The position numbers and the translations under genes are program-made. Positions 2,682 to 36,339 of a stretch of DNA of 63,039 nucleotides are shown here, piece by piece (the first letter of the stretch is position 1; each line of letters begins with the position of its first letter). The notes beneath the pieces are model-generated. The model was not told the origin of the DNA. It did no database searches and worked only from the letters and a program-made list of their open reading frames with translations. Source of the DNA: Ichthyobacteriaceae bacterium (GTDB taxonomy: Bacteria; Bacteroidota; Bacteroidia; Flavobacteriales; JADGDT01); assembly GCA_023145615.1 (NCBI GenBank), contig JAGLDK010000005.1, positions 1-63,039 of the forward strand. The letters run 5' to 3'.

Positions 2682-2746
2682 AAATCTGAAAACATAGGAT
2701 TAAGAAAATATAAAAACACAAAACACAAAAATAAAAATTTAAAAAA

Positions 2747-4036: not shown

Positions 4037-4043
4037 ACTTTTT

Positions 4044-5715: not shown

Positions 5716-5791
5716 TTATTAAGTAATAAAATAATTTATTTAAAATTGATAGTGTTCGCTCGTTCACTTTTAATTTGAATTAAAGCTTATA

Positions 5792-5841
5792 ATGGAGTTG
5801 ATGTTTTAAATATAAACTTTAAAACATCAACTCCATTTTTT
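5792..5841 (+). terminator. Rho-independent terminator after aldA
   Basis: A 19-bp stem, ATGGAGTTGATGTTTTAAA / TTTAAAACATCAACTCCAT, followed by TTTTT. Confidence 0.7.
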
Positions 5842-5865
5842 ATAAAACAACAAACAATTTGTAAT

Positions 5866-6612: not shown

Positions 6613-8078
6613 TGGAACCTACACAAGCTAAACCGCAAACAAAATTTAACACAAAATCTGAAACGAAACCTAAAGCAAATCTTAAAACAAAAAAGATAAT
6701 TAAACAACAAACACAAACACAAACACACGCACAGTTAGCCGAAGGGTTTTTATCGAATCAATTAAAGGCAAGTTGGTTTAATAAAAGTATTTGGTATCAG
6801 CGTGATAAAAGAGATGTGGCAACCAAAAAACTCAACGAGTGGGAAACACTTAGAGAGTTAGCATCGGATATAAAAGCACATACTTTATCGAAATTAGATG
6901 AGTATTTAATTGAGTTTGAAGAAAAGGCAACAGCCAACGGAATAAATATACATTGGGCTTCTGATGATAAGGAACACAACGAAATTGCAACCAATTTATT
7001 GAAAAAACACAATGCCAAAAAGGTTGTAAAAAGTAAATCGATGCTTTCGGAAGAGTGCGAACTGAATCATCATTTAGAAAATAATGGTATTGAAATTATA
7101 GAATCGGATTTAGGAGAAAGGATATTGCAATTTTCTGGAGAAAAACCAAGTCATATTGTAATGCCAGCTATTCATAAAACCAAAGAAGAGATTGGAGAGT
7201 TATTTGAGGAAAAGTTAAATACCAAAAAAAGTAACGATCCTGTTTATTTAACTCAAGCGGCACGATTACATTTAAGAGAAAAGTTTATAAATGCCGATGC
7301 ATCAATGAGCGGTGTAAATTTTGCGGTTGCCGAAACCGGTAGTTTTGTTCTTTGTACAAACGAAGGAAATGCCGATTTGGGTTTAACTGCAAACTCTAAA
7401 TTACACATTGCATCAATGGGAATTGAAAAGATAATTCCGAAGCAAGAGCATTTAGGGGTTTTTGTTAGAATGCTTGCTCGTAATGCAACTGGGCAACCAA
7501 TAACTACATATACAAGTCATTTTACAAAGCCAAATAAAGGTTCGGAAATACATATAATTATTGTTGATAATAACCGAACAAAATTGTTGGCAGAAGAGAA
7601 GTTTAACTCTTCGTTAAAATGCATACGTTGTGCGGCTTGTATGAATACTTGTCCGGTGTTTAAAAATAGTGGAGGACACTCTTATAATTTTGTTATTCCA
7701 GGACCTATTGGTGCAATTTTAGCACCAGCCCACGATATAAAAAAGTACGAAGATATGCCATTTGCATCTACGCTTTGCGGATCGTGTAGCAATGTTTGTC
7801 CGGTTAAAATAAATATACACGAACAGTTGTACGATTGGCGTCAGGAAATTACCCAACGCAAAAGTTCGTTTACCATAAAAAGTATAATGATGAAAGGTGG
7901 TGCTTTTGTACTAAGTCATACTTGGATGTATCGATTGTTTGGTAAAATAGGAGGTTTTTTTGTTCATAATTTCCGAAAGATTTCGACAATGGCAACACCA
8001 TGGGGAAAAGGCAGAGAGTTGCCCGATGTTCCGAAAGAAAGCTTTAAGGATTGGTGGGATAATAATGCTAAGAAGTAG
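6612..8078 (+). CDS. lutB: Lactate utilisation protein B (4Fe-4S, LUD domain)
   Basis: 488 aa with two ferredoxin motifs, 'CIRCAACMNTCPV' and 'CGSCSNVCPV'. The start overlaps the lutA stop as TAATG. There is an unusual K/T/Q-rich N-terminal extension of about 40 aa. Confidence 0.8.
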   Translation: MEPTQAKPQTKFNTKSETKPKANLKTKKIIKQQTQTQTHAQLAEGFLSNQLKASWFNKSIWYQRDKRDVATKKLNEWETLRELASDIKAHTLSKLDEYLIEFEEKATANGINIHWASDDKEHNEIATNLLKKHNAKKVVKSKSMLSEECELNHHLENNGIEIIESDLGERILQFSGEKPSHIVMPAIHKTKEEIGELFEEKLNTKKSNDPVYLTQAARLHLREKFINADASMSGVNFAVAETGSFVLCTNEGNADLGLTANSKLHIASMGIEKIIPKQEHLGVFVRMLARNATGQPITTYTSHFTKPNKGSEIHIIIVDNNRTKLLAEEKFNSSLKCIRCAACMNTCPVFKNSGGHSYNFVIPGPIGAILAPAHDIKKYEDMPFASTLCGSCSNVCPVKINIHEQLYDWRQEITQRKSSFTIKSIMMKGGAFVLSHTWMYRLFGKIGGFFVHNFRKISTMATPWGKGRELPDVPKESFKDWWDNNAKK

Positions 8079-8135
8079 CATTTTAATTAGTTACAAATTA
8101 GTAATTAGTTATTTTGAAATTAATATTTACAGGTT

Positions 8136-8720
8136 ATGACAACTAGAGAAAAAATACTGAATAGAATAAAAAAAGGTGTAGCACCAAATGTTGATTTGCC
8201 AGATATGAGCATTGCCGAAAGTTGGATAACTCCAATTAACCACCATGATTTAAAGCTTGTTTTAGAAAGTGTTGGGGGCGATTTGCAATATGTTGATTCG
8301 GTTGAAGAATTGAACTATAAGTTAGGCGATATGTTTCCTGAGAGCTTAAATATTTACTCAAATGTAAAGGGTGTAGATTCTAATTTTAGTATAAAAAATA
8401 AAACGGCAATTGAACTTGCAAATATTGGAGTAGCGGTGCTTAATGGCGATTTTATTGTTGAAGAAAATGGAGCAGTTTTTATATCGGATAAAAATATGGG
8501 GTTAGATTCAATACCCACTATTACTGAATATTTGGTAATGGTTATTCCGAAAAATAATATTGTTAAAACAATGCATCAGGCTTACAAACAGTTTAATTTA
8601 AGAGAGCTTAGATATGGTACATTTATTTCTGGTCCATCTAAAACAGCCGATATAGAATCGACTTTGGTATTTGGAGCACATGGAGCCAAAAATTTAACTG
8701 TATTTATGGTTAACGAGTAG
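8136..8720 (+). CDS. lutC: Lactate utilisation protein C (LUD/YkgG family)
   Basis: 194 aa. It is the third gene of the lutABC triplet and has the expected size. Confidence 0.65.
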   Translation: MTTREKILNRIKKGVAPNVDLPDMSIAESWITPINHHDLKLVLESVGGDLQYVDSVEELNYKLGDMFPESLNIYSNVKGVDSNFSIKNKTAIELANIGVAVLNGDFIVEENGAVFISDKNMGLDSIPTITEYLVMVIPKNNIVKTMHQAYKQFNLRELRYGTFISGPSKTADIESTLVFGAHGAKNLTVFMVNE

Positions 8721-8889
8721 TAAAGTAAGTAAAACTCAATGTTTTTTTTGAGCAAAAAGTGACATAGAAATGCCAATTTGTGTATTGCCATTAAGTGTAT
8801 ATAAATTCATATTTGTATAAATATTATTACGAAACAAAATTTAATAATTGCAGAACTACGCAATTTTACCATAAAAAACATAATATATA

Positions 8890-10164
8890 ATGAATGTAAT
8901 TAAGCAAGCATACGATTTGGCAAAAACTGAGTATGCAAAATTAGGAGTTGATACTGATGCAGTAATCAAAAAAATGGCTGATGTAAATGTAAGTTTACAT
9001 TGCTGGCAAACCGACGATGTTGGAGGTTTTGAAACTCCTGATGCTGAGCTTGGAGGTGGAGGAATTCAGGTTACCGGAAATTATCCTGGTAAAGCAAATT
9101 CAATAGAGGAAATGCGTGCCGATTTAGATAAATCAATGTCGTTAATTCCGGGTAAACAGCGTTTGAACTTACATGCAATTTACGGAGAGTTTCAAGGCTC
9201 GTTTGTTGATAGAGATGAGGTTGATGTTGAGCATTTTCAGGGTTGGATTGATTGGGCTAAAGAAAGAGAAATTGGTTTAGATTTTAATGCTTCTTGTTTT
9301 TCTCATCCTAAATCTAACGATGGTTTTACATTGTCGAGCAAGAATGAAGAAATACGTTTGTTTTGGGTTGAACACGTAAAGCAGTGTAGAAAAATTTCGG
9401 CAGAAATGGGTAAGCAGTTAGGTACTGCTTGTGTGCATAATATTTGGATTCCAGACGGGTCGAAAGATACTCCGGTTGATAGATCAGGGCATAGAAAGCT
9501 TTTGAAGAAATCGTTAGACGAAATTTTTGCAGTAGAATATCCAAAAGAACATATTAAAGATGCTGTTGAAAGTAAATTATTCGGAATAGGATCGGAATCG
9601 ATGGTAGTAGGTTCTCATGATTTTTACATGGGGTATGCTGTTAAAAACGAGAAATTAATTTGTTTAGATAATGGGCATTTCCATCCAACAGAGCAGGTTG
9701 GAGATAAAATATCATCTACACTAGAGTTTGTTGATGAGGTTTTGTTACACGTTACTCGTGGGGTTAGATGGGATAGTGATCATGTTGTTACTTTAAACGA
9801 TGATGTTACTATGATAGCTCAGGAAGTTGTACGTGCAAATGTTTTAGATAGAGTTAATATTGGACTTGACTTTTTTGATGCTAGTTTAAACAGAGTAGGG
9901 GCTTATGTAGTTGGAACTCGTGCAACACAAAAAGCATTTTTAATAGCTTTGTTAGAGCCAACAAAACTTATTTTAAAGTTTGAGGAAGATGCTAAGTATT
10001 TTGAAAGATTAGCAATGTTAGAAGAGATGAAAACAATGCCTTTTGGAGCAGTTTGGAATTACTATTGTGAGCAAGAAGGAGTGCCTGCAAACGGTGCTTA
10101 TATTACAGATGTACAGCAGTATGAAAAAGAAGTGCTTTTAGAAAGATCTATGGTTGAAGCATAA
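8890..10164 (+). CDS. rhaA: L-rhamnose isomerase
   Basis: 424 aa. 'VSLHCWQTDDVGGFE', 'NLHAIY' and 'DNGHFHPTE' are typical of RhaA-type isomerases. Confidence 0.8.
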   Translation: MNVIKQAYDLAKTEYAKLGVDTDAVIKKMADVNVSLHCWQTDDVGGFETPDAELGGGGIQVTGNYPGKANSIEEMRADLDKSMSLIPGKQRLNLHAIYGEFQGSFVDRDEVDVEHFQGWIDWAKEREIGLDFNASCFSHPKSNDGFTLSSKNEEIRLFWVEHVKQCRKISAEMGKQLGTACVHNIWIPDGSKDTPVDRSGHRKLLKKSLDEIFAVEYPKEHIKDAVESKLFGIGSESMVVGSHDFYMGYAVKNEKLICLDNGHFHPTEQVGDKISSTLEFVDEVLLHVTRGVRWDSDHVVTLNDDVTMIAQEVVRANVLDRVNIGLDFFDASLNRVGAYVVGTRATQKAFLIALLEPTKLILKFEEDAKYFERLAMLEEMKTMPFGAVWNYYCEQEGVPANGAYITDVQQYEKEVLLERSMVEA

Positions 10165-24089: not shown

Positions 24090-24782
24090 TTAGCCATTTT
24101 TATAAGCCACCATTAATTTGTTTTTATCTAAAATACAGATTCTATCTTTTTTAAGTTCTATAACCTTTTCCTCGTTAAATTCTCTCAAAACTCTACCTAC
24201 ACTCATTACTGACATGTTAGAGAATTCGGCTAAATCTTTACGAGTTATAAACGACATAATTTCGTTGCTATCGAAAACATCGGTTGATAGAATTAACAAT
24301 GACCAAGCAATACGTCCGGTAAGTTGTTTCGACGAAGAATTAGCCATGTTGTTAAAATTACTAACACCTTTTTTATTGATGTTTTTTATTGTTTCGGCAG
24401 CAAACTTACTATTTTTATTTATCAGTTTTTCAAACAAGCTATTATCGAAACTGCAAACAATACAATCAGTTAATGCCTCTAGTGTGTGTTGCATTATGGT
24501 GTTTACAAAAAGCCCGTCAAGTCCTATTAAATTACATTTTTTTTCTATTGAAACTAATGTTCGGGTGCTAGTAAATTCTTTGTAGAATTTAACATAACCT
24601 TTCTTTAAAAATAAGATGTTTGTGTTTGCCGATCCTTGCTTAGCAAGTACTTCACCTTTCTTATAATTAACTATAATTTTGGTTTTTTCTAGTTCCTCTA
24701 AGTCCTCACTTGTAAGTACATCAAAGCACTTTGACCTACCCTTGCATTTTATGTCAATATACTCATTGTCTCTAAACGTCAT
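24090..24782 (-). CDS. Crp/Fnr-family transcriptional regulator
   Basis: 230 aa with a cNMP-binding-like beta-roll at the N-terminus and a C-terminal HTH 'RKDLAEFSNMSVMSVGRVLREF'. It has five Cys, including the N-terminal 'CKGRSKC'. It is divergent from the Mbx-like operon. Confidence 0.75.
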   Translation of the reverse strand: MTFRDNEYIDIKCKGRSKCFDVLTSEDLEELEKTKIIVNYKKGEVLAKQGSANTNILFLKKGYVKFYKEFTSTRTLVSIEKKCNLIGLDGLFVNTIMQHTLEALTDCIVCSFDNSLFEKLINKNSKFAAETIKNINKKGVSNFNNMANSSSKQLTGRIAWSLLILSTDVFDSNEIMSFITRKDLAEFSNMSVMSVGRVLREFNEEKVIELKKDRICILDKNKLMVAYKNG

Positions 24783-24993: not shown

Positions 24994-25001
24994 TAAATTT
25001 G
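24994..25001 (+). promoter_or_regulatory. -7 box TAAATTTG for the Mbx-like operon
   Basis: An exact TAnnTTTG match 40 nt upstream of the ATG at 25041. Confidence 0.45.
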
Positions 25002-25040
25002 CGAACAAGTATTGTAAAAATCACAATTATTATTAATCAC

Positions 25041-25529
25041 ATGAAGAATAATGCACTAATGTTTTTGACTTTGATGTCAGTTTGGGTGTTGCTTAACGCA
25101 TCATTAGACCCAACGCTATTGGCTATCGGAGCAGGTGTTAGTTTGCTTATATCTTTTGCTTTTTGCTCAAAATGCGATGTAATAAGTGGTATAAACTTAA
25201 GTCCCAAGGCTATAGCTTATTCATTTATGTTCGTTTTTGTGTTTATTGGCGAGTTGATAAAAGCAAACATTAGCATCTCAAAGAGAGTTTTAGCGCCTTC
25301 ACTACCTATTAATCCAGGTATTGTACAGGTAAAAACTAAATTGAAGTCGAAAGTTGGAAGAATGGTATTAGCAAATGCCATAACTCTTACGCCAGGTACA
25401 TTTACATTGGATATTAAAGGCGAAGACCTTTTTATTCATTGGGTAGATGTAAAATCAACAGATGTTGATGGAGCGACAAAAGAGATAGTATCAACGTTTG
25501 AAAAGTATTTGGAGGTAATGTATGGTTAG
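25041..25529 (+). CDS. MrpE/MnhE-like membrane subunit (Mbx subunit A equivalent)
   Basis: It carries the 'LANAITLTPGTFTLD' MnhE signature. The ORF-track start at 24999 is a TTG inside a TAAATTTG -7 box, and the first ATG is at 25041. Confidence 0.8.
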   Translation: MKNNALMFLTLMSVWVLLNASLDPTLLAIGAGVSLLISFAFCSKCDVISGINLSPKAIAYSFMFVFVFIGELIKANISISKRVLAPSLPINPGIVQVKTKLKSKVGRMVLANAITLTPGTFTLDIKGEDLFIHWVDVKSTDVDGATKEIVSTFEKYLEVMYG

Positions 25530-25782
25530 TTCATTTATTTATTTAGCTGTAGCGATTAGTTTAATCAGCGTTTTGATCGTCTTAGTAAGATTTGCTAAGG
25601 GACCAGAAAAAGTAGATCGCATTGTTGCTTTTGATGTTATTTCAATTATTGGAGTTTCATTAATATTATTAATAGCAACGTTGATGAAGAGAGTTATTTA
25701 CATTGATGTAGCAATAGTTTATGCTATTCTAGGATTTATCGGTGTAGTTGTTGTTTCACGATTCATTAAAAAAGGACTGTAA
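25522..25782 (+). CDS. MrpF/PhaF-like membrane subunit (Mbx B equivalent)
   Basis: 86 aa with 'RFAKGPEKVDRIVAFDVISI'. It overlaps the upstream gene by 8 nt. Confidence 0.8.
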   Translation: MVSSFIYLAVAISLISVLIVLVRFAKGPEKVDRIVAFDVISIIGVSLILLIATLMKRVIYIDVAIVYAILGFIGVVVVSRFIKKGL

Positions 25783-26144
25783 TGGGAGATTTGTTAGAAA
25801 TTATTGGAGGTGTATTTCTGGTATTAGGTAGTATTACTATGCTGTTAGCAGCAATTGGAATGTATCGTATGCCTGATTTTTATAACCGTATCCAGGTGGC
25901 TACAAAAGCTTCAACATTGGGTTTATTGCAAGTGGCTTTAGGAGTTGGATTAATTATGCCAGGATGGGCACCAAAATTGGTTGTTCTTTTTGTGTTTATA
26001 TTATTCACAAACCCTATTTCTTCTCATTTAGTAGCTCGTGCTGCTTACTTTACAAAAGTACCAATGAGTAAGGATACTAAAATTGACAAACTAAAAGAGT
26101 CAATTAGCAAAGCACATTTGAAAACTGTAAAAACTAAAGCTTAA
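25782..26144 (+). CDS. MrpG/PhaG-like membrane subunit (Mbx C equivalent)
   Basis: 120 aa with 'MYRMPDFYNRIQVATKASTLG'. It has a TAATG stop/start overlap. Confidence 0.8.
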   Translation: MGDLLEIIGGVFLVLGSITMLLAAIGMYRMPDFYNRIQVATKASTLGLLQVALGVGLIMPGWAPKLVVLFVFILFTNPISSHLVARAAYFTKVPMSKDTKIDKLKESISKAHLKTVKTKA

Positions 26145-26149
26145 GAAAG

Positions 26150-26392
26150 ATGTTAACAGTATTAGCAGCAATATTAGGAATAGCAGCTGTAGTAGGAGCA
26201 TACTACGCTATTCACAATGAAAAATTGACCGCAGCTATAATTGCATCAGGAATAGTTGGTATGGTGTCGTCAATATTATTTTTATTATTAGCAGCACCAG
26301 ATGTTGCAATGACAGAAGCAAGTATTGGTAGTGCATTAACTACTGCTATCTTTTTCTTCACTTTAAACAAAATAAGACAAACAAATGGATAA
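26150..26392 (+). CDS. MbhD/DUF4040-like small membrane subunit (Mbx D equivalent)
   Basis: 80 aa with two to three TM segments and 'AAPDVAMTEASIGSALTT', which resembles the MnhB N-terminal part. Confidence 0.7.
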   Translation: MLTVLAAILGIAAVVGAYYAIHNEKLTAAIIASGIVGMVSSILFLLLAAPDVAMTEASIGSALTTAIFFFTLNKIRQTNG

Positions 26393-27089
26393 GAAATTTA
26401 TGGTAGCGCTGCTTGTAGCAGCTATGGCAGTTATTCTATTTCCTTTGTTTCAATCATTTGAAGGAGGAACGCAATTAAGCGAATTAGGACAATATTACAC
26501 GCAAAATGGAGTAAGCGATACAGGAGCAACCAACTTGGTAGCATCTGTAGTTGTTACTTACAGAGGGTTAGATACTCTTGGTGAGGTAACTATTTTATTC
26601 CTTGCAGCATCTATTATCTCATTCTTTTTGAGTGTAAGTAAAGATGATAGAATTGAAAACAGAACAGTTATGTCTGTAACCGAAATTTTGAGTACCGCAT
26701 CTCAAACTCTTGTGCCAATTATTGTATTGGTAGGAGCTTATATTTTGGTTAACGGTCATTTAACTCCAGGTGGAGGTTTCCAGGGTGGTGCTATTATTGC
26801 ATCGGGTACCTTACTTATGTTCTTAGCAAATCCAAATCACAAATTAAACCACACAATTATTCATGTTATTGAATCTACTTCAGGTATTGCATTCGTAGCT
26901 ATTGGTGTTATTGGTGTTTTAATGATGGACGGCGGATTTTTAAGTAACAAGTTGTTCGATCTTGGTACTCCGGGTGAGGTTATCTCAGCAGGAGCTATGC
27001 CATTAATCAACATTTTCTTGGGACTTAAAGTAGGAACAGAGTTATCTAACGTTCTTGGAATATTTGTAGAATCACAAAACGAGAAATAA
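26385..27089 (+). CDS. MnhB/MrpB-domain membrane subunit (Mbx F equivalent)
   Basis: 234 aa with 'VVTYRGLDTLGEVTILF' and 'GHLTPGGGFQGGA'. It overlaps the upstream gene by 8 nt. Confidence 0.8.
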   Translation: MDKKFMVALLVAAMAVILFPLFQSFEGGTQLSELGQYYTQNGVSDTGATNLVASVVVTYRGLDTLGEVTILFLAASIISFFLSVSKDDRIENRTVMSVTEILSTASQTLVPIIVLVGAYILVNGHLTPGGGFQGGAIIASGTLLMFLANPNHKLNHTIIHVIESTSGIAFVAIGVIGVLMMDGGFLSNKLFDLGTPGEVISAGAMPLINIFLGLKVGTELSNVLGIFVESQNEK

Positions 27090-27090
27090 G

Positions 27091-27450
27091 ATGGATCAGT
27101 ATTTAGGACAAGTAGTGATGGCAATAGGATTTATTCTTGCAATTTTAGGGTTGTATGGCTTATTGTCTCAAAAAAACATGATAAAGATGATTCTTGGTTT
27201 CTCAATATTTACTACTGGTGTAAATATTATTATGGTTGCCATAGGATATGTAAAGGGAGGTACAGCACCTATTTTAGATGCTGAAGGAAATGCAGTTGCA
27301 AAATTTGTAGATCCAGTACCACAGGCTTTGGTATTAACATCAATCGTTATTGGATTAGGTGTTACAGCTATGATGTTGGCTTACGTTATGAAGTTGTATC
27401 AGGATAAAAAGAGTTTGAACATAAATGACTATAAAGATTTAAAATGGTAG
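27091..27450 (+). CDS. MrpC/NuoK-like membrane subunit (Mbx G equivalent)
   Basis: 119 aa with 'DPVPQALVLTSIVIGLGVTAMML'. Confidence 0.8.
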   Translation: MDQYLGQVVMAIGFILAILGLYGLLSQKNMIKMILGFSIFTTGVNIIMVAIGYVKGGTAPILDAEGNAVAKFVDPVPQALVLTSIVIGLGVTAMMLAYVMKLYQDKKSLNINDYKDLKW

Positions 27451-30400
27451 GACCAATTTATATTATAGCACTTGCTCTCGGACTTGCGTTTTTCCTTGGG
27501 TTTTTTGGAAAGTCGGCTAAGACTCTTTCAGTTTACCTAATGTTAGCAGGACTTGCTGCCATGACATGTATCTCTGGTACGTGGCTTAGCGCATTTATCG
27601 ACGGAAGTGTTTCGACACAGGAAATTTATACGGCTGGTTTTAAACCTCCGTATTCTATTAATTTAAGAATGGGTCTTGAGGAGGCTGCGTTTACGTTTAT
27701 TATTAACCTAATCGGACTTCTTGGAGGAACATACTTATTTCAAACACTTAAAAAAGCAGGTAATGCCGCAATGTCGGTATTTATCATACTTATTATGAGT
27801 TTGAATGTTATTGTAATGACACGTGATCTTTTCAACCTTTTCGTATTCGTTGAGATTGGAAGTATCGCTACTGCTGGTTTAATACTTTTAGACAAAGAGT
27901 CGAAAGCATTACAAGCCGGTTTGAAATACATGATTGCTACAGGAGTAATTTCTGGTTTATTATTAATCGGAATTATATTTGCTTATAGCTTTGTAGGTAA
28001 TTTAAATATTGATGCTATTATTGGTGCTAACCTTGCAGGTACAACTGCTGGTATGGTTGCTGCTTTTTTAATAGTAGTTGTTCTTGTACTTGAGTTAAAA
28101 CCTTTCCCAGCAAACGGATGGGGACTTGATGTTTACGAAGCTGCAAACCCTGGAGTTGGTGCATTAGTATCGGCTGCAATCGGAACTGCTAGTTTATTCG
28201 TACTTCACAAAGTTCTACCAATGGCTGGAGAATCTTTTTACCCTTACATTGTAGCGGTAGGAGTTATTACTTTTGTAGGTTCGAACTTAGTAGGTACTCA
28301 ACAAAAAAATGCAAACCGTTTGTTAGGATATTCTTCTATCGGACAACTTGGATTGGTTGTTGCAGTTATCGGACTAGAGCCTGTATTAGGAACTAGTTTT
28401 AAATTCATCGCATTTGCTTTAATAATCAATCACGTATTGGCTAAAGCAGGTTTGTTCTGGATTTCAGGAATTATTAGAAAAGCTAATATTTCAGAATGGT
28501 CGGTATTGCGTACAAAACCAGCATTACTTATTTCATTCTTGATTTTCATATTTGCTTTAATCGGATTCCCTCCATTCCCTTCTTTCTTCGGAAAATATCA
28601 GTTAATCATGAATTTGATTTCTTCTGATAACATTGGTACTGCTGCATTTATCCTTATCGGATCTTTTGCCGAAGGTATTTACATGTTCCGTTGGGTAGGC
28701 GATGCGTTGAAAAACGAAGTTGCTGAAGATGCTACTGAATCTCTTGATTGTGGAAAACTAAACAAGGTACTTCCTGTATTATTGATGGCTGTAGCTGTTG
28801 TTGCTGCCGGATATTTATCAATACCTTTTGTTGATGGAGCTTATTCTACATACTTTATTCCACTTGCATTTATTATGTTTATTGGATTAATTGATAGTTT
28901 CCTTCCTGCTGTTGTAAAGAACGTTGTTTCTATTGCAGGTATGGCATACTTCACTTACGTTATGTATCCAATTATTGAGGGTGATTTAATGCGTTCTATT
29001 TTCTTCGGAATATTTATGATTGGGGGTATTCTTACTCTTATTCCTGGATTTGCTAAGAAAGGTAAGCGCGAAGGTTTCTATCCTGCTGCATTATTAATGT
29101 ATGCTGGTTTAGCAACTATTATTACTGCTGATAACACTTTCGGATTTTTCTTCGGATGGGAATTAATGACTGCTGGTTCTTACTTCCTTATCATTCGTGG
29201 TAAACGTTCAAAAGCTCACGCATATTCATACATGTTGTTCTCTGTTGCCGGAGCTTACTTAATCCTTTTCGGATTCGGTTTTGCTTATCAAGCAATTGGT
29301 TCATCGTTGTTAGAAGGATTAGGAGAGATTAAATTGTTGCCTACATTGGCTTACACTGCATTGGCTATTGGTTTCATGACAAAAACGGCATCATTAGGTC
29401 TTCATATATGGTTGCCAGGTGCACACGGTGAAGCTGAGTCTGACGTATCTCCAATGGTATCGGCAGTATTGCTTAAAGCCGGAGTATTTGGTTTAATGTT
29501 GTTGTTCCTTAATATGGGAGACAATGGTGAAACTATTTTATACGTACTAGGTTGGGTTGGAGCATTTACTGCTTTAATGGGTAACCTTTCTGCAACTTTC
29601 CAGGAAGATGCAAAACGTATGTTGGCTTACTCTTCAATAGGGCAATTAGGATATATCCTTTTCGCTATTTCAATGATGACTACTTTAGGATGGTTAGCAG
29701 GTTTTACTTATGTGTTAAACCACTTTATGTTTAAATCTATTCTGTTTATGGTAGTTGGAGGAATTGTTGTAGCAACAGGTACTCACGATTTATACCGTAT
29801 GGGTGGACTTATCAAAAAAATGCCTTTAGCATTTATAGCTGTTATGGTTGCTATGATTACTATGGCTGGTCTTCCACCACTTTCAGGATTTGCAGGTAAA
29901 TGGTTGTTCTACAACGCTGTAATTCTTAAAGGATGGTACATTCAAGGAGTTATAGTATTCTTTGCAGGTACAATTGCATTTATGTATGCATACAAAATGC
30001 TTCACTCAATTTTCTTTGGTCAATTAAAAGATAACCACCGAAACTTAAAAGAGTTAAGTCCTGCAATATTAATTCCTGCTTATATTCTTATTGCAGGTAT
30101 TATGTACTTCTCAGTATTCCCACAAGACGTTCTACAACCTATAAACGAACTATTAGTTAGTTTAAATCTTGGAGATACACTTACATGGGCTGCCGATGGT
30201 AATGCAACTACAGTATTAAGTAACTGGAATGGTAATGCTGTTATGATAATTATTGTAACAACATTTGCTTTAGTATTGCTTTATACTATGCTAATTACTG
30301 GTAAAACTAAAAAACTTGAGCAGTTTAACATTGCTTATTCTGCCGAGCGTCCTTTCCGTCCTGAAACAACACATTATTCACATAATATGTTTGCAGGATT

Positions 30401-30581
30401 AAATAAGGCTATTGGATTTTTAGTAGCTCCTGGAATTACAAGTTTCTGGAATAATGTAAGTACTATGGTAATGGATTTTGCTGGTATGGTGAGAAGAATT
30501 TACAGTGGTAATGGACAGGTTTATGCTGGTCAGATCATTGTTTATATCATAGTTTTCTATTTTATAGCATTAGGTAAATAA
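27444..30581 (+). CDS. Fused double antiporter-like subunit (two NuoL/M/N-MrpD modules; Mbx H + H' equivalent)
   Basis: 1045 aa. Module 1 has 'LFVFVEIGS' (TM5 Glu) and 'LKYMIATG'. Module 2 has 'FFGWELMTAGSYF' and 'MTKTASLGLHIWLPGAHGEAESDVSPMVSAVLLKAG'. Confidence 0.85.
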   Translation: MVGPIYIIALALGLAFFLGFFGKSAKTLSVYLMLAGLAAMTCISGTWLSAFIDGSVSTQEIYTAGFKPPYSINLRMGLEEAAFTFIINLIGLLGGTYLFQTLKKAGNAAMSVFIILIMSLNVIVMTRDLFNLFVFVEIGSIATAGLILLDKESKALQAGLKYMIATGVISGLLLIGIIFAYSFVGNLNIDAIIGANLAGTTAGMVAAFLIVVVLVLELKPFPANGWGLDVYEAANPGVGALVSAAIGTASLFVLHKVLPMAGESFYPYIVAVGVITFVGSNLVGTQQKNANRLLGYSSIGQLGLVVAVIGLEPVLGTSFKFIAFALIINHVLAKAGLFWISGIIRKANISEWSVLRTKPALLISFLIFIFALIGFPPFPSFFGKYQLIMNLISSDNIGTAAFILIGSFAEGIYMFRWVGDALKNEVAEDATESLDCGKLNKVLPVLLMAVAVVAAGYLSIPFVDGAYSTYFIPLAFIMFIGLIDSFLPAVVKNVVSIAGMAYFTYVMYPIIEGDLMRSIFFGIFMIGGILTLIPGFAKKGKREGFYPAALLMYAGLATIITADNTFGFFFGWELMTAGSYFLIIRGKRSKAHAYSYMLFSVAGAYLILFGFGFAYQAIGSSLLEGLGEIKLLPTLAYTALAIGFMTKTASLGLHIWLPGAHGEAESDVSPMVSAVLLKAGVFGLMLLFLNMGDNGETILYVLGWVGAFTALMGNLSATFQEDAKRMLAYSSIGQLGYILFAISMMTTLGWLAGFTYVLNHFMFKSILFMVVGGIVVATGTHDLYRMGGLIKKMPLAFIAVMVAMITMAGLPPLSGFAGKWLFYNAVILKGWYIQGVIVFFAGTIAFMYAYKMLHSIFFGQLKDNHRNLKELSPAILIPAYILIAGIMYFSVFPQDVLQPINELLVSLNLGDTLTWAADGNATTVLSNWNGNAVMIIIVTTFALVLLYTMLITGKTKKLEQFNIAYSAERPFRPETTHYSHNMFAGLNKAIGFLVAPGITSFWNNVSTMVMDFAGMVRRIYSGNGQVYAGQIIVYIIVFYFIALGK

Positions 30582-30591
30582 TAACTATTTA

Positions 30592-30641
30592 ATCAATTGC
30601 TATTAGTTATAAATATTGGTTTGTAACTAATAGCAATTGAT
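30592..30641 (+). promoter_or_regulatory. 18-bp perfect hairpin in the H/H'-to-M spacer of the Mbx-like operon
   Basis: ATCAATTGCTATTAGTTA-N14-TAACTAATAGCAATTGAT, with no T-run after it. Confidence 0.5.
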
Positions 30642-30663
30642 ATTTAGTTTGATAATTATAATT

Positions 30664-31581
30664 ATGGATTATAGTATAACAAAATTTTTATGGTCATTGC
30701 TTGGGCTATTCATTATCCTTAACTGGGGAATGCTTATGTCGTCAACAATGCGTAGAGTAGGAGCAAGACTTGCTGGTAGAATTGGAGTACCAATGTATCA
30801 ACCTTGGATTGATCTTGCTAAATTAATGGCTCTTAAGACTTGGTTGTCTCATGGAGTTATGTACTACATAGGACCTGTATTTCGTCTTGTAGGAGGTGTA
30901 GGTATGTTCCTTTTTATGCCGATAATTTTCGGTTCTGAAATTTGGAGTAACTATTCTTTTTCGGGAGATTTAATCTTATTGCTTTATTTCCAATCATTCG
31001 GAATGTTAGGTATGGCAATGGGTGCATCTGATAGTTCATCGCCACACGCCTCAATAGGTATTTCTCGTGGTTTAGCTCAGTTTGCAGCAGTAGAGGTTCC
31101 TATGACTTTAGCAGTTATTGCAATTGCTATTCAACACCAAACGTTTTCGTTTAATTCAATTATGGAAGCTCAACAAGGTGGAGTATTAAATTGGACTATT
31201 TTTACTAACCCATTAGCATCTATTGCTGGTATGTTAGCAATGTTAGGAGCAATGAGCCACTCGCCATTTAACCTTGTAAAAGCACCAAACGAAATTCCAA
31301 TAGGACCACCAACTGAATATCACTCATCATTTTTGAGTGTTTTACGTACAAACAGTGCTATTATTCACGTAGTAGAAGCTGCTTTGTTCATGAACTTATT
31401 CTTCGGTGGAGCTGATACTTGGTTAATGTACATTGTTAAAACTTTCTTCGTTTACTTTATTTCGGTATTTGTAGGTATGGTTTTCCCTCGTATGAAAGTT
31501 GAAGATTCGGTACGTTGGTTCCTTAAATGGCCAACAGCAGTTGGAATTATTGCAGTATTAGTAGCTGCATATTGGAAGTAA
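30664..31581 (+). CDS. NuoH/MbhM-like membrane subunit (Mbx M equivalent)
   Basis: It has 'GISRGLAQFAAVEVPM' and 'SPFNLVKAPNEIPIGPPTEYHS', as in NuoH/HyfC. The ORF-track TTG start at 30637 lies inside a hairpin arm, and the first ATG is at 30664. Confidence 0.8.
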   Translation: MDYSITKFLWSLLGLFIILNWGMLMSSTMRRVGARLAGRIGVPMYQPWIDLAKLMALKTWLSHGVMYYIGPVFRLVGGVGMFLFMPIIFGSEIWSNYSFSGDLILLLYFQSFGMLGMAMGASDSSSPHASIGISRGLAQFAAVEVPMTLAVIAIAIQHQTFSFNSIMEAQQGGVLNWTIFTNPLASIAGMLAMLGAMSHSPFNLVKAPNEIPIGPPTEYHSSFLSVLRTNSAIIHVVEAALFMNLFFGGADTWLMYIVKTFFVYFISVFVGMVFPRMKVEDSVRWFLKWPTAVGIIAVLVAAYWK

Positions 31582-31813
31582 TTTTTAATTGCCTTTTGCA
31601 AATTAAAAACGTTATAGGCTTTAAGCTTTAATTCGAATGCTTTATTAGCATCGTTAAGGCTTAATGCTTTAGTTGTAAATAAAAATGTTGGTTTGTAATA
31701 ATTATTTGATTTTCAAATAATTGCACATCATTTTTGCATTGGTAGTATAATTTGTACTACTGTATAAAGCATTATAGCGTATAGCTTTTTTTGCTAAAGC
31801 AAAAAAAAAGAAA

Positions 31814-32476
31814 ATGGAAGAGAAAAAAGATAAGTTTTTAGCACCTGAAAACGAAGTTAGACAGGTGTCTGCTCCTGACGGATCTATTATTGAAGTTGAT
31901 CCGTTAAAGGATTACTTCAGTCAAGAGAAGCCAGAGCCATATAAAGTAGGTTCAGGGCCTGTTGAGAATTTCCTTAACTGGGCACGTGCTGAGAGTTTAT
32001 GGGTATTAGGATTTGGAACTGGATGTGGAAGTATTGAAATTCCACCATTGGTAACACCTCGTTTCGATATGTACCGTTTTGGTGTGCAAATGAGAGCTAC
32101 TCCACGTCAATCAAACGTATTTATTATTTCAGGATACCTTGCCATAAAAACTCTTAAAAGAGCTATTCGTGCTTACGAGCAAATGCCTAGCCCTAAATAT
32201 ATAGTTGCACTTGGTAGTTGTACAATTAATGGAGGTATGTATTACGATTCATACAATACCATTAATCGTTTAGATCAATATTTGCCAGTTGATGCTTATA
32301 TAGCTGGATGTATGCCACGTCCGGAGGCTTTATTAGCTGGTTTTGCTGAGTTGAAAAAACTTATTAAAGCTGGTAAAGGTCACAAGGCAAACGAGTATGT
32401 TGAAAATCTTGAATGGTACAAAACAAACCAAAAGAAGATTATCAAGGATTGGAATATGCCTGATTACAACTGGTAA
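31814..32476 (+). CDS. NuoB/MbhJ-like [4Fe-4S] subunit with only three cysteines (Mbx J equivalent)
   Basis: 220 aa with 'GFGTGCGSIEI', 'LGSCTINGG' and 'IAGCMPRPEAL'. These are the only three Cys in the protein. Confidence 0.85.
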   Translation: MEEKKDKFLAPENEVRQVSAPDGSIIEVDPLKDYFSQEKPEPYKVGSGPVENFLNWARAESLWVLGFGTGCGSIEIPPLVTPRFDMYRFGVQMRATPRQSNVFIISGYLAIKTLKRAIRAYEQMPSPKYIVALGSCTINGGMYYDSYNTINRLDQYLPVDAYIAGCMPRPEALLAGFAELKKLIKAGKGHKANEYVENLEWYKTNQKKIIKDWNMPDYNW

Positions 32477-32591
32477 TATTGAGTTGAAGCGTTTATTGTT
32501 GTAAAATTTAATTTATCAGCAAAACAATTATAGTTATGTTGATAAATGATTAAATCATTCAACGATTAAACAATTAAACATTGAAGAAAAA

Positions 32592-33170
32592 ATGCAAAAA
32601 GGAATAAATAATTTGATTGAAAAATTCGGTGCCTCTGATTTAGTTGAGAGAAGATCGGGTTTGTCTTTTATTACTGTTGATCAAACTAAAGCTGTTGCCG
32701 CTATCACACATCTTAAGGATATTGATGGTTATACTGTTTTATCTTTTATTACAGCAGCAGATTGGATTGAAGATGGAAAGATGCAATTAACTTATATGTT
32801 GAATAATCCTGCTGAAGTTGCAGAGATTGCTATTCGTGTAATGTTAGAGCGTAAAAAAGAAGCTGGAGAATCAATGGAGACAATTCATCACCTTTGGCCA
32901 AATGCTAAAAAATGGCAACAGGAGTTGAAAGAAATGTACGGTGTTGATTTCCCAACAAGCCCAGGTGTTAACGATTCTTTCATTCTTGAAGGATGGGATG
33001 ATATGCCACCTAACCGTCGCGATTTCGATACTAAGCAATATGCAGAGGACACTTTCTTCCCTCGTGGAGGTCGTGTTACTCACGATCCTGCTACTTACAT
33101 GCGCGAACAGCTTGATCCAAAAGATCCTCAGTACTATACTAAGAAGAAGAAAAAAGACATTAATAGTTAA
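32592..33170 (+). CDS. NuoC/MbhK-like 30-kDa subunit (Mbx K equivalent)
   Basis: 192 aa with 'HHLWPNAKKWQQELKEMYGVDF', which corresponds to the NuoC 'W..A.W.ERE..DMFGI' region. Confidence 0.75.
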   Translation: MQKGINNLIEKFGASDLVERRSGLSFITVDQTKAVAAITHLKDIDGYTVLSFITAADWIEDGKMQLTYMLNNPAEVAEIAIRVMLERKKEAGESMETIHHLWPNAKKWQQELKEMYGVDFPTSPGVNDSFILEGWDDMPPNRRDFDTKQYAEDTFFPRGGRVTHDPATYMREQLDPKDPQYYTKKKKKDINS

Positions 33171-33180
33171 TTTTTGAGAG

Positions 33181-34374
33181 ATGGGAATTAGTAAATTATT
33201 TACGATGAATGAAGACAGAAGTCTTTATCCTGAACATGATGAAAATGGGAAACCTATCATCGACCTTGAGTCTCATAAGTTTTTAAAACTATGGCAAGGA
33301 CCTCAACATCCTGGTATTACTGGTAACATGTCGTTAGAATTGACAGTAAGTGGAGATGAAATTGTAGAATCTAAAACTCACGTAGGTTACCTACACCGTG
33401 GATTTGAGAAGTTACTTGAACGTAGATTGTTTGTGCAATGTATGCCAACATCTATCCGTTTGTGTGTTGCCGAACCAGATCCAAATGAGTACATAGTATC
33501 AACAGCTGTTGAGGAGCTTGGAGGAATTGAAATTCCTGATAATGCTAAATGGTTGAGAATGCTTTCGTTAGAAATGGCTCGTTTACAAGTTTTGTTACGT
33601 GGTGTTCCTGGTCAGGCTGGTACTTTTGCACTTGGTTTAGGATACCAGTGGGGTAACTACCTTCGTGATTTAATTCTTGATAGTTTTGAAGAATTAACAG
33701 GTGGGCGTGTTTATCATATGTACATTATTCCTGGTGGAGTTCGTGGTAATTTACCTGAAGGCTTTAAAGGGCGTATGTTAGAAAAACTTAAGCTAATTGA
33801 TGAGTTTGTTGTAAAAATAGACAAGTTGATTTTTCAAAACGTTGTTTTCGAAAGCAGAGCCAAAGGATTAGGTCATATACCTAAAGAGTGGGTTGATAAA
33901 TATGGAGTTTACGGACCTGCAGCTCGTGCGTCAGGTGTTATGCGCGATGTGCGTAAAACTAACCCTTACTTAAACTACGATCAATTAGATTTCGAACCTC
34001 ATGTAACTACAGAGGGAGATGTTTATGCTCGTTCGGTTGTTAGATACAATGATCTTCAAATGACTGTTGACATGATTCGTCAGATTTTAGATAAGATGCC
34101 TGATGGTGGAGATATTAGAGCGCAAACTCCAAACGTTTTACACTGGAAAATTCCTAAAGGAGAAACTTATGTAAAGTGTGAAAGTTCTCGTGGTGAGTAT
34201 GGTATGTATTTTGTGACTGACGGTAGCGATAAGCCTCGTAGAGCTCACTTAAAAGGACCTTCTTATACTCACGCAAATGCACTTTTAGATAAATTGCTTA
34301 TTAATGCTAACATAGCAGATACAGCGGCAATTATGGTTTCTTTAGCAACTTGTCCTCCAGAAATAGAGAGGTAA
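33181..34374 (+). CDS. NuoD/MbhL/MbsL-like catalytic-core subunit lacking a complete NiFe site (Mbx L equivalent)
   Basis: 397 aa with 'GPQHPGITGNMSL' and 'GYLHRGFEKL'. The N-terminal motif is 'RLCVAE' and the C-terminal end is 'ATCPPEIER', so both positions read CxxE rather than CxxC. Confidence 0.85.
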   Translation: MGISKLFTMNEDRSLYPEHDENGKPIIDLESHKFLKLWQGPQHPGITGNMSLELTVSGDEIVESKTHVGYLHRGFEKLLERRLFVQCMPTSIRLCVAEPDPNEYIVSTAVEELGGIEIPDNAKWLRMLSLEMARLQVLLRGVPGQAGTFALGLGYQWGNYLRDLILDSFEELTGGRVYHMYIIPGGVRGNLPEGFKGRMLEKLKLIDEFVVKIDKLIFQNVVFESRAKGLGHIPKEWVDKYGVYGPAARASGVMRDVRKTNPYLNYDQLDFEPHVTTEGDVYARSVVRYNDLQMTVDMIRQILDKMPDGGDIRAQTPNVLHWKIPKGETYVKCESSRGEYGMYFVTDGSDKPRRAHLKGPSYTHANALLDKLLINANIADTAAIMVSLATCPPEIER

Positions 34375-34402
34375 ATTGGTTTAACTGTTGAAATGTTGAA
34401 CT

Positions 34403-34426
34403 GTTGAAATACTTCGGTGTTTTAAC
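34403..34426 (+). promoter_or_regulatory. UUCG-tetraloop hairpin in the L-to-N spacer of the Mbx-like operon
   Basis: GTTGAAATAC-TTCG-GTGTTTTAAC gives a 10-bp stem including two G-U pairs. It is preceded by CTGTTGAAAT direct repeats. Confidence 0.45.
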
Positions 34427-34468
34427 AACTAAACAAAAAACTATTAAACGAATAAACATTAAGAAAAA

Positions 34469-36277
34469 ATGAATATAAAAAAGTTATTAACACCGTTTAC
34501 TGCTTGGGGTAATGTAACTAAAGATCCTGTTACAATTAAGGATCCTTTAAACGAGCGTCCAGGTGCAGATAGATATAGAGGTTTTCACCGAAACGATGTA
34601 GAAGCATGTGTTGGTTGTGGTTCTTGTGAAGATATTTGCGAGAATGAAGCAATTGACTTAATGCCTGCAAAGGATACAAAAGATGGTGATTCAGGATTAC
34701 GCCCAATGATTGATTACGGTCGTTGTTGCTGGTGTGCTCTTTGTGTTGATGTTTGTACTACAAACTCACTTACATTGAGTAACGAATATACTTGGATTTC
34801 TACCGACCCTGAAGATTTCAGATATATACCTGGTATAGATAAAAAAGAATGGGATAATAATAACGATAAAGGTTGGAAAAAACCTGAGCCAAACTACGAA
34901 TTCTATCCATTAAAAAGAATTCAACCGTCTCACTTATCGCCCGAAGATCGTTCCGATTCGTTTATCGAAATGATGCATGGTTATTCAAAAGACCAAGCAA
35001 TGCAAGAAGCCGATCGTTGTGTTGAGTGTGGTATTTGTACTGCAACTTGTCCTGCACACATGGGTATTCCTGAGTATATCAAAGCTATTCGTAACGATGA
35101 TTTAGAGGAAGGTTTACGTATACTTTACGATACAAACCCATTACCAGAAATTTGTGGACGTATTTGTACTCATAAATGTGAAACTGTTTGTACAATCGGA
35201 CATAAAGGAGATCCATTATCTATCCGTTGGCTGAAACGTTATATTGCCGATCAAAATCCATCGGAGAGATATAAGAAAATTCTTGAAACTGAAAACCTTG
35301 TATCAAAAGGGAAGAAAGTTGCAATTATTGGTGCTGGTCCTTCTGGATTATCAGCAGCTCACTACTTAGTACAGATGGGTTACGAAGTTAAGATTTTTGA
35401 AAAACTTGCAGCTGCCGGTGGTATGATGCGTTACGGTATTCCATCGTATCGTTTACCTTACGACCAAATAGACAAGGATATTGATTACATCTTAAGTCTT
35501 GGAGTAGATATTCAGTATAACATAAACGTTGGAAACGGTGAAGGAGAAATTTCTCTTGAAACTTTAGGAAATGATTATGATGCTGTATTCTCTGGTACTG
35601 GGTTACACTTAGGACGTTCAACAGGTATTCCTGGTTCTGATAACAAGCACGTTTACGCTTCTCCAGATTTATTACGTTGGATAGTTGAAGGAAAAGAATT
35701 TGAGGTTCCTGAAAACGTAGTAGTTATTGGTGGTGGTAACGTGGCAATGGACATTACTCGTTCAATGGCTCGTTTGCAGATGAAGAAATACGGAAAAGTT
35801 GGTGTTATTACTACTGCTCTTGAAGGAGAAGATAAAATGCCAGCCGATCGTGAAGAAATTGACGAAGGACGTGAAGAAGGATGTATTATCAACCCAGGTT
35901 GGGCTCCAAAATCAGTGGAAATTGATTCGAATGGTGTACCAACAGGATTAAATGTTGTTAAATGTCACTCTTTATTCGATTCTGAAGGACGTTTCAACCC
36001 TCAAACTGATGAAGACAATAAGGAATTCTGGCCTGGTACAATGATTATTGAATCAATTGGACAGGGTATGGATATTTCTTACCTAGATGGAAAATACAAA
36101 GATCAGTTAGAATTCGGACCAAGAGGAAGAGTTCAAACAGATGAGTATTACCAAACAGGTTTACCATGGTTATTCATGGGTGGAGACATCATTAAAGGAC
36201 CAGATGTTATTACAGGTATTGCTACAGGTCATAAAGCTGCAGTAGGTATCGACAGAATGCTAAATCCAGAATTCTAG
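34469..36277 (+). CDS. Fusion of a NuoI/MbhN-like 2x[4Fe-4S] ferredoxin domain with a GltD/SudA/NfnB-type NAD(P)H-dependent FAD oxidoreductase (Mbx N equivalent plus extra module)
   Basis: 602 aa. The N-terminus has 'CVGCGSCEDIC' and 'CCWCALCVDVC'. The middle has 'RCVECGICTATCP...EICGRICTHKCETVC'. Further on come 'VAIIGAGPSGLSAAHYL', 'GGMMRYGIPSYRLP', 'VVVIGGGNVAMD' and 'FMGGDIIKGPDVITGIATGHKAA'. Confidence 0.85.
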   Translation: MNIKKLLTPFTAWGNVTKDPVTIKDPLNERPGADRYRGFHRNDVEACVGCGSCEDICENEAIDLMPAKDTKDGDSGLRPMIDYGRCCWCALCVDVCTTNSLTLSNEYTWISTDPEDFRYIPGIDKKEWDNNNDKGWKKPEPNYEFYPLKRIQPSHLSPEDRSDSFIEMMHGYSKDQAMQEADRCVECGICTATCPAHMGIPEYIKAIRNDDLEEGLRILYDTNPLPEICGRICTHKCETVCTIGHKGDPLSIRWLKRYIADQNPSERYKKILETENLVSKGKKVAIIGAGPSGLSAAHYLVQMGYEVKIFEKLAAAGGMMRYGIPSYRLPYDQIDKDIDYILSLGVDIQYNINVGNGEGEISLETLGNDYDAVFSGTGLHLGRSTGIPGSDNKHVYASPDLLRWIVEGKEFEVPENVVVIGGGNVAMDITRSMARLQMKKYGKVGVITTALEGEDKMPADREEIDEGREEGCIINPGWAPKSVEIDSNGVPTGLNVVKCHSLFDSEGRFNPQTDEDNKEFWPGTMIIESIGQGMDISYLDGKYKDQLEFGPRGRVQTDEYYQTGLPWLFMGGDIIKGPDVITGIATGHKAAVGIDRMLNPEF

Positions 36278-36303: not shown

Positions 36304-36339
36304 AAAACCTCCAAGGTCGGATGATCTTGGAGGTTTTTT
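36304..36339 (+). terminator. Rho-independent terminator ending the Mbx-like operon
   Basis: AACCTCCAAG-N10-CTTGGAGGTT followed by a T-run. Confidence 0.8.

Follow-up and report, generated by a model that had tools for sequence, protein, structure and literature searches.

The locus described here raises the question of how electrons enter or leave a bacterial membrane complex whose ferredoxin-like subunit carries a flavoprotein of its own. It lies in a stretch of 63,039 nucleotides (positions 1 to 63,039, forward strand, of contig JAGLDK010000005.1 in the Ichthyobacteriaceae assembly GCA_023145615.1; hereafter the window) and comprises an operon of twelve co-directional genes (24999-36277) of the Mrp-Mbx type, related to the sulfane reductase MBS of Pyrococcus furiosus. 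The genes follow one another in the order MrpE, F, G, B (two open reading frames, ORFs), C-like, H-H', M, J, K, L and N. The last of them encodes an N subunit of 602 residues in which a NuoI-like domain for two [4Fe-4S] clusters is joined to a flavoprotein of the NfnB type. The answer which we favour, with reservations, is that the N subunit of a bacterial Mrp-Mbx/MBS-type complex is here wired to its own NfnB-like flavoprotein, which would serve as a linear entry for NADH electrons into a sulfane-sulfur-type reductase.

The initial annotation of this DNA had described the protein as a single 602-aa ORF, and 34469..36277 (+) indeed forms one reading frame with an ATG start. All motifs quoted at that time were located in it, namely CVGCGSCEDIC (residues 47-57) and CCWCALCVDVC (86-96) in the N-terminal part, RCVECGICTATCP (183-195) and EICGRICTHKCETVC (227-241) in the Cys-rich region, VAIIGAGPSGLSAAHYL (284-300) and GGMMRYGIPSYRLP (317-330) in the FAD-fold region, and VVVIGGGNVAMD (417-428) and GGDIIKGPDVITGIATGHKAA (571-591) further downstream. 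The glycine motifs of the Rossmann domains read GAGPSG (288-293) and GGGNVAMD (421-428). Searches with domain hidden Markov models recovered both halves: Pfam placed Fer4_7/Fer4_9 (4Fe-4S dicluster) at residues 46-99, Fer4_20 at 163-264 (E 1e-30) and Pyr_redox_2 at 282-580 (E 5e-22), while NuoI/FpoI models of NCBIfam covered residues 6-119 and GltD/NfnB-type models residues 125-599.

Homologues were collected by a pattern scan in which each species was represented by one genome and which gave at least 595 confirmed relatives; the locus counts reported in this work refer to the best 80 of them, each covering residues ~1-599. The homologue is a single ORF in all 80 loci (585-616 aa in 74 and 742-765 aa in five; one ends at a contig edge), and the window protein could be aligned from end to end, at 68-87% identity, with more than 120 database proteins (590-605 aa). 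By these full-length homologues and collinear loci a frameshift or assembly artefact is ruled out, and the ORF is a genuine, continuous fusion gene.

The N-terminal domain had been labelled NuoI/MbhN-type. Residues 1-115 are a NuoI-type domain for two [4Fe-4S] clusters as proposed, but MbsN is a closer relative than MbhN: against the Protein Data Bank (PDB) the domain scored 74.7 bits with MbsN (6u8y_N), 48.5 with the best NuoI and 38.9 with MbhN (6cfw_N). Its cluster cysteines (C47, C50, C53 and C57; C86, C89, C92 and C96) are invariant in the 80 loci, and the eight Cys are shared with MbsN, whose cluster-ligand pattern is known (PMC8165549). MbsN differs in that it is a free-standing protein of 208 aa fed by ferredoxin, whereas the window protein bears an NAD(P)H flavoprotein. 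A second example of an unfused N is a complete metagenomic gene of 214 codons (P0141) on a 1.6-kb contig. When the database was searched with the N domain alone, the representatives returned were a mixture of fused proteins, fragments and unfused proteins.

The linker, previously put at ~65 aa, is only ~40 aa long (residues 116-154), because NfnB homology begins already at residue 155. It had no match among solved structures or Pfam models. Within the Bacteroidota, P121, G122, K126, W128, G135, W136, K138, P139, Y143 and R150 of the linker are conserved. An AlphaFold2 (AF2) model built on a 46-sequence alignment gave confidence values (pLDDT) below 50 for the N domain and the linker.

The remainder of the protein had been taken for a complete GltD/SudA/NfnB-type module. 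This assignment was borne out, with sites for two [4Fe-4S] clusters, FAD and NAD(P)H, and NfnB/SudA (4YLF, 5JCA) turned out to be the best match of residues 155-599 in both sequence and fold. In the PDB, NfnB of Thermotoga maritima (4ylf_B, 239 bits) and NfnI-L of P. furiosus came nearest; GltD chains scored 156-160 bits and dihydropyrimidine dehydrogenase (DPD) ~119. The AF2 model of this part has pLDDT values of 80-95, and Foldseek yielded solely NfnB, GltD and DPD folds, headed by NfnI-L (5jca_L) and NfnB (4ylf_B) with target TM-scores of 0.81-0.82, GltD (0.78) and DPD being lower.

All cysteines expected in the NfnB-like domain are present (residues 184, 187, 190, 194, 229, 233, 237 and 241). 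The seven Cys ligands of NfnB, C39, C42, C47, C51, C90, C96 and C100 (PMC7596348), correspond to C184, C187, C190, C194, C233, C237 and C241, and C229, likewise invariant in the 80 loci, is the counterpart of the non-ligating C86. The FAD site and the second Rossmann fold of NfnB are also retained. Taken over both halves, none of the 16 cluster cysteines varies among the 80 loci, which come from more than ten phyla, and the glycine motifs for FAD and NAD(P)H are invariant in the homologue alignment.

There are, however, several differences from NfnB. The module is joined to a NuoI-like domain, its first cluster motif is C-x2-C-x2-C-x3-C instead of C-x2-C-x4-C-x3-C, and A-L-E with a six-residue insert stands in place of the YRR motif. 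The Glu117 ligand of the proximal cluster is replaced by K256, and this Lys is invariant in the 80 loci. We considered the replacement as an argument against electron bifurcation but dropped it: the bifurcating NfnABC chains 9n5u_A and 9bov_A also carry Lys at this position, so that K256 is uninformative in this respect. Finally, no NfnA-like (PyrK-like, FAD plus [2Fe-2S]) partner was found in the operon or among the ORFs scanned in the 63-kb window, nor was a GltB-like large subunit found there.

Features of the J and L subunits assign the catalytic core to the MBS type, with neither a hydrogenase nor a quinone reductase being indicated by the sequences. The MBS structure 6U8Y is the best solved relative of N, J and L alike, and the operon resembles that of MBS in gene content and order. 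J is ~60% identical to MbsJ and contains only three Cys, which correspond to C28, C93 and C123 of MbsJ, the ligands of the proximal [4Fe-4S] cluster; the position of MbsJ C25 is taken by Gly. In MBS this cluster is held by three Cys with C25 non-ligating, and L retains two vestigial Cys of the NiFe site (PMC7684303). L of the window scored 296 bits with 6u8y_L, 194 with Nqo4 and 136 with MbhL. It has kept the counterparts of MbsL C85 and C385 (motifs RLCVAEPD and ATCPPEIER), the other two NiFe Cys are gone, and the quinone ligands of Nqo4 are replaced (H38 by T, Y87 by V). The MBS-type assignment rests on this combination of a three-Cys cluster in J, the Cys pattern of L and the loss of the quinone ligands.

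Quinone as the electron acceptor, which would ease the energy problem discussed below, is disfavoured since L lacks the H38 and Y87 counterparts and J and L are MBS-like. Carriers of the fused protein such as Thermotoga are not known to possess quinones.

Two further observations concern the subunits of the core and the membrane arm. J has an N-terminal extension of ~47 aa (31814-31960, +) which is unmatched by MbsJ or NuoB chains, the alignments beginning at residues 48-51. H and H', which are the separate proteins MbsH and MbsH' in P. furiosus, form one ORF of 1045 aa in the window; the match extends over ~3 kb in most loci of Bacteroidota and proteobacteria, and in several other phyla the second half of H-H' alone matches.

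The flavoprotein had been proposed to link the complex to NAD(P)H. For the subtype found in the window this link can be narrowed to NADH, as predicted from the nucleotide site. Rossmann folds specific for NAD classically carry an acidic residue immediately behind their second strand. In the window protein, the site that corresponds to YRR of NfnB reads T448-T449-A450-L451-E452 and follows a six-residue insert (RLQMKKYGKV); in the AF2 model a strand (446-449) directly precedes the A-L-E site. The insert together with [S/A/C]-L-E is present in 68 of the 80 loci, and the other 12, that of Saccharicrinis (L060) among them, have YRRR; residue 452 is Glu in exactly those 68 and Arg in exactly those 12. 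The proteins of Thermosipho and the Kosmotogaceae belong to the L-E type.

In T. maritima NfnB, Y310-R311-R312 holds the phosphate of NADPH, and kinetic data on DsrL show that enzymes with YRR use NADP(H) while DsrL-1, which lacks it, uses NAD(H) (PMC7596348). Given that YRR is missing and a conserved Glu452 stands in its place, the window enzyme is predicted to be NADH-specific, and the YRR minority to use NADPH. The split between A-L-E and YRR offers a simple sequence marker and a target for mutagenesis. DsrL-1 resembles the window protein in other ways too: it combines an NfnB-like core with an additional ferredoxin domain for two [4Fe-4S] clusters, has lost YRR, and its preference for NAD(H) has been measured. 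Its ferredoxin domain is C-terminal and serves DsrAB, whereas that of the window protein is N-terminal, of the NuoI type and part of a membrane complex.

The fused protein occurs in Bacteroidota, Chlorobiota, Spirochaetota, Cloacimonadota, Fermentibacterota, Marinimicrobia, Halanaerobiales, Thermotogota, Bipolaricaulota and Anaerolineales, and in Alpha- and Gammaproteobacteria, many of which are sulfur oxidisers. Besides Thermosipho and Thermotoga, the carriers that can be cultivated include Prolixibacter denitrificans DSM 27267 (L008), Halanaerobium saccharolyticum (L045) and Tropicimonas isoalkanivorans (L034). A survey of fused and split arrangements had been suggested; it gave the fused single ORF throughout the 80 loci, with L directly upstream on the same strand in 75 of the 76 that had sufficient upstream DNA. 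The whole gene set was found in unchanged order in 54 loci. The flavoprotein is therefore a conserved, integral part of the complex, and the earlier notion of a built-in pyridine-nucleotide module is a natural inference which the conserved cofactor ligands and the synteny support.

A rubrerythrin-like protein is encoded next to N or fused to it in 29 of the 80 loci, mainly in proteobacteria; in the spirochaete-type proteins of 742-765 aa it forms the C-terminal part of N. No rubrerythrin was found in the operon, in the 63-kb window or in the closest Bacteroidota relatives. The sole locus in which L does not adjoin N is that of a Thiotrichaceae metagenome-assembled genome (L072, 10001-12301), where the fused N and a rubrerythrin-like gene lie without any Mrp-Mbx gene within 10 kb, next to genes for a polyprenyl synthetase, a MIF-family protein and MlaE/ABC proteins. 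The pair of N and the rubrerythrin-like protein may be separable from the membrane complex.

The fusion had been presented as the feature which most clearly separates this locus from the archaeal systems. As worded, this did not stand, since the architecture has already been modelled and published. NCBIfam contains a curated full-length model of it (NF010590/PRK13984, 'putative oxidoreductase'), built on Thermotogota. Residues 2-599 of the window protein align with positions 7-607 of the 611 in this model (835.7 bits, E 1.7e-251). The score is below the cutoff of 946 bits, and NCBI would therefore not name the window protein by this model. Among the proteins tested only that of Thermosipho melanesiensis passes (1194.7 bits), and the members from Bacteroidota and proteobacteria fail. 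The fusion was described in 2015 for Thermotoga and proteobacteria, together with the observation that the operon often ends in rubrerythrin (Degli Esposti, PMC4758237). The window protein hence belongs to a family that is widespread in bacteria and has been annotated and described before, and is not a new kind of system; what is added here is the A-L-E/YRR split, the MBS-like character of J and L, and the missing rubrerythrin partner in the window.

The contrast with described archaeal systems is also a partial one, because MBX-related operons of the Desulfurococcaceae include a separate sudA-like gene, which the authors read as a sign of an NADPH-dehydrogenase-linked MBX (PMC3035292, PMC2678158). 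As in the window, a SudA/GltD-like flavoprotein gene accompanies an operon of Mrp and NuoBCDHI-like genes in Thermosphaera aggregans and Staphylothermus marinus. According to the published descriptions it is a separate gene there, shorter in S. marinus, whereas it is fused to N in the window. Very close in design is the N subunit of the Thermotogota Mbx (T. melanesiensis ABR31076; T. maritima mbx), likewise a fusion of NuoI-like and NfnB-like parts (~600-616 aa, 52% identical) that is encoded last in a 12-gene Mrp-Mbx operon and has the nucleotide site S-L-E. In comparison with these, the window lineage is mesophilic, low in GC and Bacteroidota-like, and its N lacks the rubrerythrin-like gene that follows N in a Kosmotogaceae locus (L071; a weak match).

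The following scheme, from the donor and the contact between the two pairs of clusters to the acceptor, the direction of electron flow and the link with ion movement, is our inference from these features. NADH would bind to the second Rossmann fold and pass a hydride to FAD. The electrons would then leave FAD singly and run through the two NfnB-like [4Fe-4S] clusters and the two clusters of the N domain to the three-Cys proximal cluster of J. This cluster would lie on top of a chamber formed by J, L and M in which the acceptor is reduced, by analogy with the MBS of Pyrococcus most likely sulfane sulfur or polysulfide. Its reduction would drive movement of H+ or Na+ through the fused H-H' and the Mrp-like subunits. 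The flavoprotein module would in this scheme replace free ferredoxin and play a part analogous to that of the N-module of complex I (NuoE, F and G), in which an NADH flavoprotein feeds an Fe-S chain that leads to a NuoB-type cluster. The evolutionary origin of the two modules differs: NuoF contains FMN in an unrelated fold, whereas the window protein has FAD in an NfnB-like fold and would represent an independent solution. Since the driving force is small, the linear chain is probably reversible.

An NADH entry into a sulfane-sulfur-type reductase is consistent with the induction of the T. maritima mbx operon (mbxA) by elemental sulfur (S0) (PMC9431562), given that the N subunit of the close relative Thermosipho is the same fusion. 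Several points weigh against it. The first is energetic. The standard potentials are ~ -320 mV for NAD+/NADH and ~ -260 to -270 mV for S0 or polysulfide/HS-, which amounts to ~10 kJ per two electrons. This is far less than ferredoxin would provide and barely enough for one ion, and would therefore imply a low stoichiometry, another acceptor, or operation near equilibrium or in reverse. Second, members of the family are also found in sulfur oxidisers and in Rhodobacteraceae with an aerobic or facultative way of life. Third, the rubrerythrin-like neighbour or fusion in 29 of the 80 loci hints at another electron partner. In addition, the N domain, and with it the presumed contact of the cluster pairs, is not placed in the AF2 model (pLDDT <50); ferredoxin may still dock on the N domain, unless the fused flavoprotein takes up or supplants the docking site; and no biochemical study of any fused complex was found in the literature searched.

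The earlier annotation had left three readings side by side, an NAD(P)H-driven ion pump, a gradient-driven NAD(P)+ reductase and a bifurcating entry module, and these proved to be the right set to consider. Of the alternatives to NADH entry, the one with the longest history is that the complex is a ferredoxin:NAD(P)+ oxidoreductase as in the original Mbx model, with ferredoxin as donor, the flavoprotein as an NAD(P)+-reducing exit and conservation of the energy in an ion gradient. This long-standing interpretation is still used when the Mbx of Mesotoga is drawn, and Degli Esposti (PMC4758237) likewise saw the site of NAD(P)+ reduction in the gltD-like subunit. We nevertheless regard it as rather unlikely. 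The archaeal Mbx was shown to be the ferredoxin-dependent sulfane reductase MBS and not an NADP+ reductase (PMC7684303). Furthermore, a path from ferredoxin through the N clusters and the NfnB-like clusters to FAD would bypass the J cluster and the coupling chamber, leaving the strictly conserved MBS-type features of J and L without a role. The energetics are in its favour, as the span from ferredoxin to NAD+ (~100-150 mV) would provide more energy than does NADH to polysulfide.

Reverse flow in vivo, in which the membrane potential pushes electrons from reduced sulfur at the J/L site uphill to NAD+, is given an equally low probability. The NADH/polysulfide couple is near equilibrium, and reversal would be cheap. 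Gammaproteobacteria that oxidise sulfur commonly carry the fused operon, for instance Sedimenticola, Thiodiazotropha, Thiosymbion, Thiohalocapsa and Thioalkalivibrio. In Endoriftia, the symbiont of Riftia, the Mrp-Mbx genes are co-expressed with those of the reverse tricarboxylic acid cycle, and the complex is listed there among those of unknown function and direction (PMC11636981). In sulfur oxidisers DsrL-1, an NAD(H) enzyme of the NfnB kind, operates as an NAD+ reductase (PMC7596348). The window genome, however, is low in GC and Bacteroidota-like, and the neighbours of the operon serve sugar catabolism and housekeeping; such a heterotroph makes NADH easily and must dispose of it. T. maritima, moreover, induces mbx when S0 is given as acceptor (PMC9431562).

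Still less probable is a bifurcating or confurcating module. Its FAD would send one electron of NAD(P)H into the Fe-S chain and the other to a second acceptor, or would merge electrons of ferredoxin with those of another donor. The attraction of this reading is that the nearest solved relatives (NfnB, NfnI-L, NfnABC and Stn) all have a bifurcating FAD, and that the Lys in place of NfnB E117, being present in 9n5u_A and 9bov_A as well, provides no counter-argument. The rubrerythrin-like protein found next to or fused with N in 29 of the 80 loci could moreover represent the second branch. Yet the operon and the 63-kb window contain neither an NfnA-like nor another second one-electron partner, nor rubrerythrin; the bifurcating relatives examined all retain YRR and use NADPH, whereas the window protein has A-L-E; and GltD and DPD have the same fold but do not bifurcate. 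The weakest alternative, in which an error of sequencing or assembly has joined two genes, or the genes adjoin by chance and without functional meaning, can be dismissed. The 80 loci stem from independently assembled genomes, some of them complete chromosomes, and have collinear single ORFs; more than 120 full-length proteins were found, and the linker shows in-frame conservation of residues.

Complexes of the Mrp-Mbx/MBS type are considered to be early relatives of respiratory complex I; work on them has been confined to the ferredoxin-dependent enzyme of archaea. Their bacterial counterpart, with a pyridine-nucleotide flavoprotein of its own, is present in hundreds of species, among them abundant sediment Bacteroidota, Cloacimonadota, Spirochaetota and sulfur-oxidising symbionts; the window adds one further member, from a lineage with cultivable relatives. 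A bolder extension of the NADH-entry reading, which we put forward only tentatively, is that the whole family consists of widespread, NADH-specific, ion-translocating NADH:sulfane-sulfur oxidoreductases, analogues of complex I with an independently recruited NADH module which would be reversible in sulfur oxidisers. If they are NADH-linked ion pumps acting on sulfur compounds, models of redox balance and energy yield for the carriers would change, and a second, independent route would be known by which a complex-I-like core gained an NADH input module. That the complex might instead harbour a bifurcating FAD inside a respiratory ion pump, the second acceptor in other lineages possibly being the rubrerythrin-like protein, appears very doubtful; such an enzyme would combine flavin-based bifurcation with chemiosmotic coupling. 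The assignment as NADH:sulfane-sulfur oxidoreductases is the more likely of the two.

Features of the fused N gene, of its operon and of related loci, with positions in the window unless a locus or protein is named.
Feature	Position	Strand	Evidence
Fused N subunit, 602 aa	34469..36277	+	ORF call, ATG start; final gene of operon; full-length homologues
NuoI/MbsN-type domain, aa 1-115	34469..34813	+	Best solved relative MbsN 6u8y_N, E 9e-20
Linker, aa 116-154	34814..34930	+	Homologue alignments
NfnB/DPD-type 2x[4Fe-4S] domain, aa 155-264	34931..35260	+	Pfam Fer4_20; residue-by-residue alignment to 4ylf_B
FAD-binding and NAD(P)H-binding Rossmann domains, aa 282-599	35312..36265	+	Pfam Pyr_redox_2, AF2, Foldseek
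Predicted nucleotide-specificity determinant T448-T449-A450-L451-E452	35810..35824	+	Alignment with NfnB Y310-R311-R312 position
Small Mrp-like subunits MrpE, F, G, split MrpB (two ORFs), MrpC	24999..27450	+	NCBIfam, synteny
Fused H-H' antiporter-like subunit, 1045 aa, two MrpD/NuoN/NuoM-like halves	27444..30581	+	NCBIfam, two stretches per model
M subunit, NuoH-like membrane anchor of peripheral arm; start uncertain	30637..31581	+	NCBIfam NuoH models, synteny
J subunit, NuoB/MbsJ-like	31814..32476	+	6u8y_J, 206 bits
K subunit, NuoC-like	32592..33170	+	NCBIfam NuoC models; position conserved across loci
L subunit, NuoD/MbsL-like, 397 aa	33181..34374	+	PDB search
Strong intrinsic-terminator-like hairpin, 15-bp stem and T run, 27 nt past N stop	36304..36337	+	
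Crp/Fnr-family regulator, divergent from operon	24090..24782	-	Pfam cNMP_binding and HTH_Crp_2
Rubrerythrin-like examples in other loci	L051 11773-12303; L034 11794-12288; L072 11798-12301; P0133 aa 611-747; L036, L046, L054, L056, L058		

The Crp/Fnr-family protein encoded immediately upstream of the operon and divergently from it is a candidate regulator; homologues with 34-42% identity are located at the same position and in the same orientation in 14 related loci of Bacteroidota and Chlorobiota. Between the H-H' and M genes lies a near-perfect inverted repeat with a 20-bp stem (30593-30640, +), which may affect transcript processing or translation. Since the TTG listed as the start of M (30637) falls within this repeat, the true start of the gene is probably a later ATG. 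The 94-nt spacer between L and N contains a short direct repeat, CTGTTGAAAT...TGTTGAACTGTTGAAAT (34385-34425, +), ahead of the N start codon.

The window flanks code for FabH, AccB and AccC (fatty-acid synthesis), a tail-specific protease, rhamnose catabolism and translation; nothing sulfur-related that might hint at the substrate was found in the flanks scanned. A cluster for the utilisation of rhamnose and lactaldehyde/lactate (1293-10164, +) includes genes for an FGGY kinase, a class II aldolase, an aldehyde dehydrogenase, LutA- and LutB-like proteins and L-rhamnose isomerase. Together with a GC content of 32%, this cluster fits a sugar-fermenting, Bacteroidota-like host.

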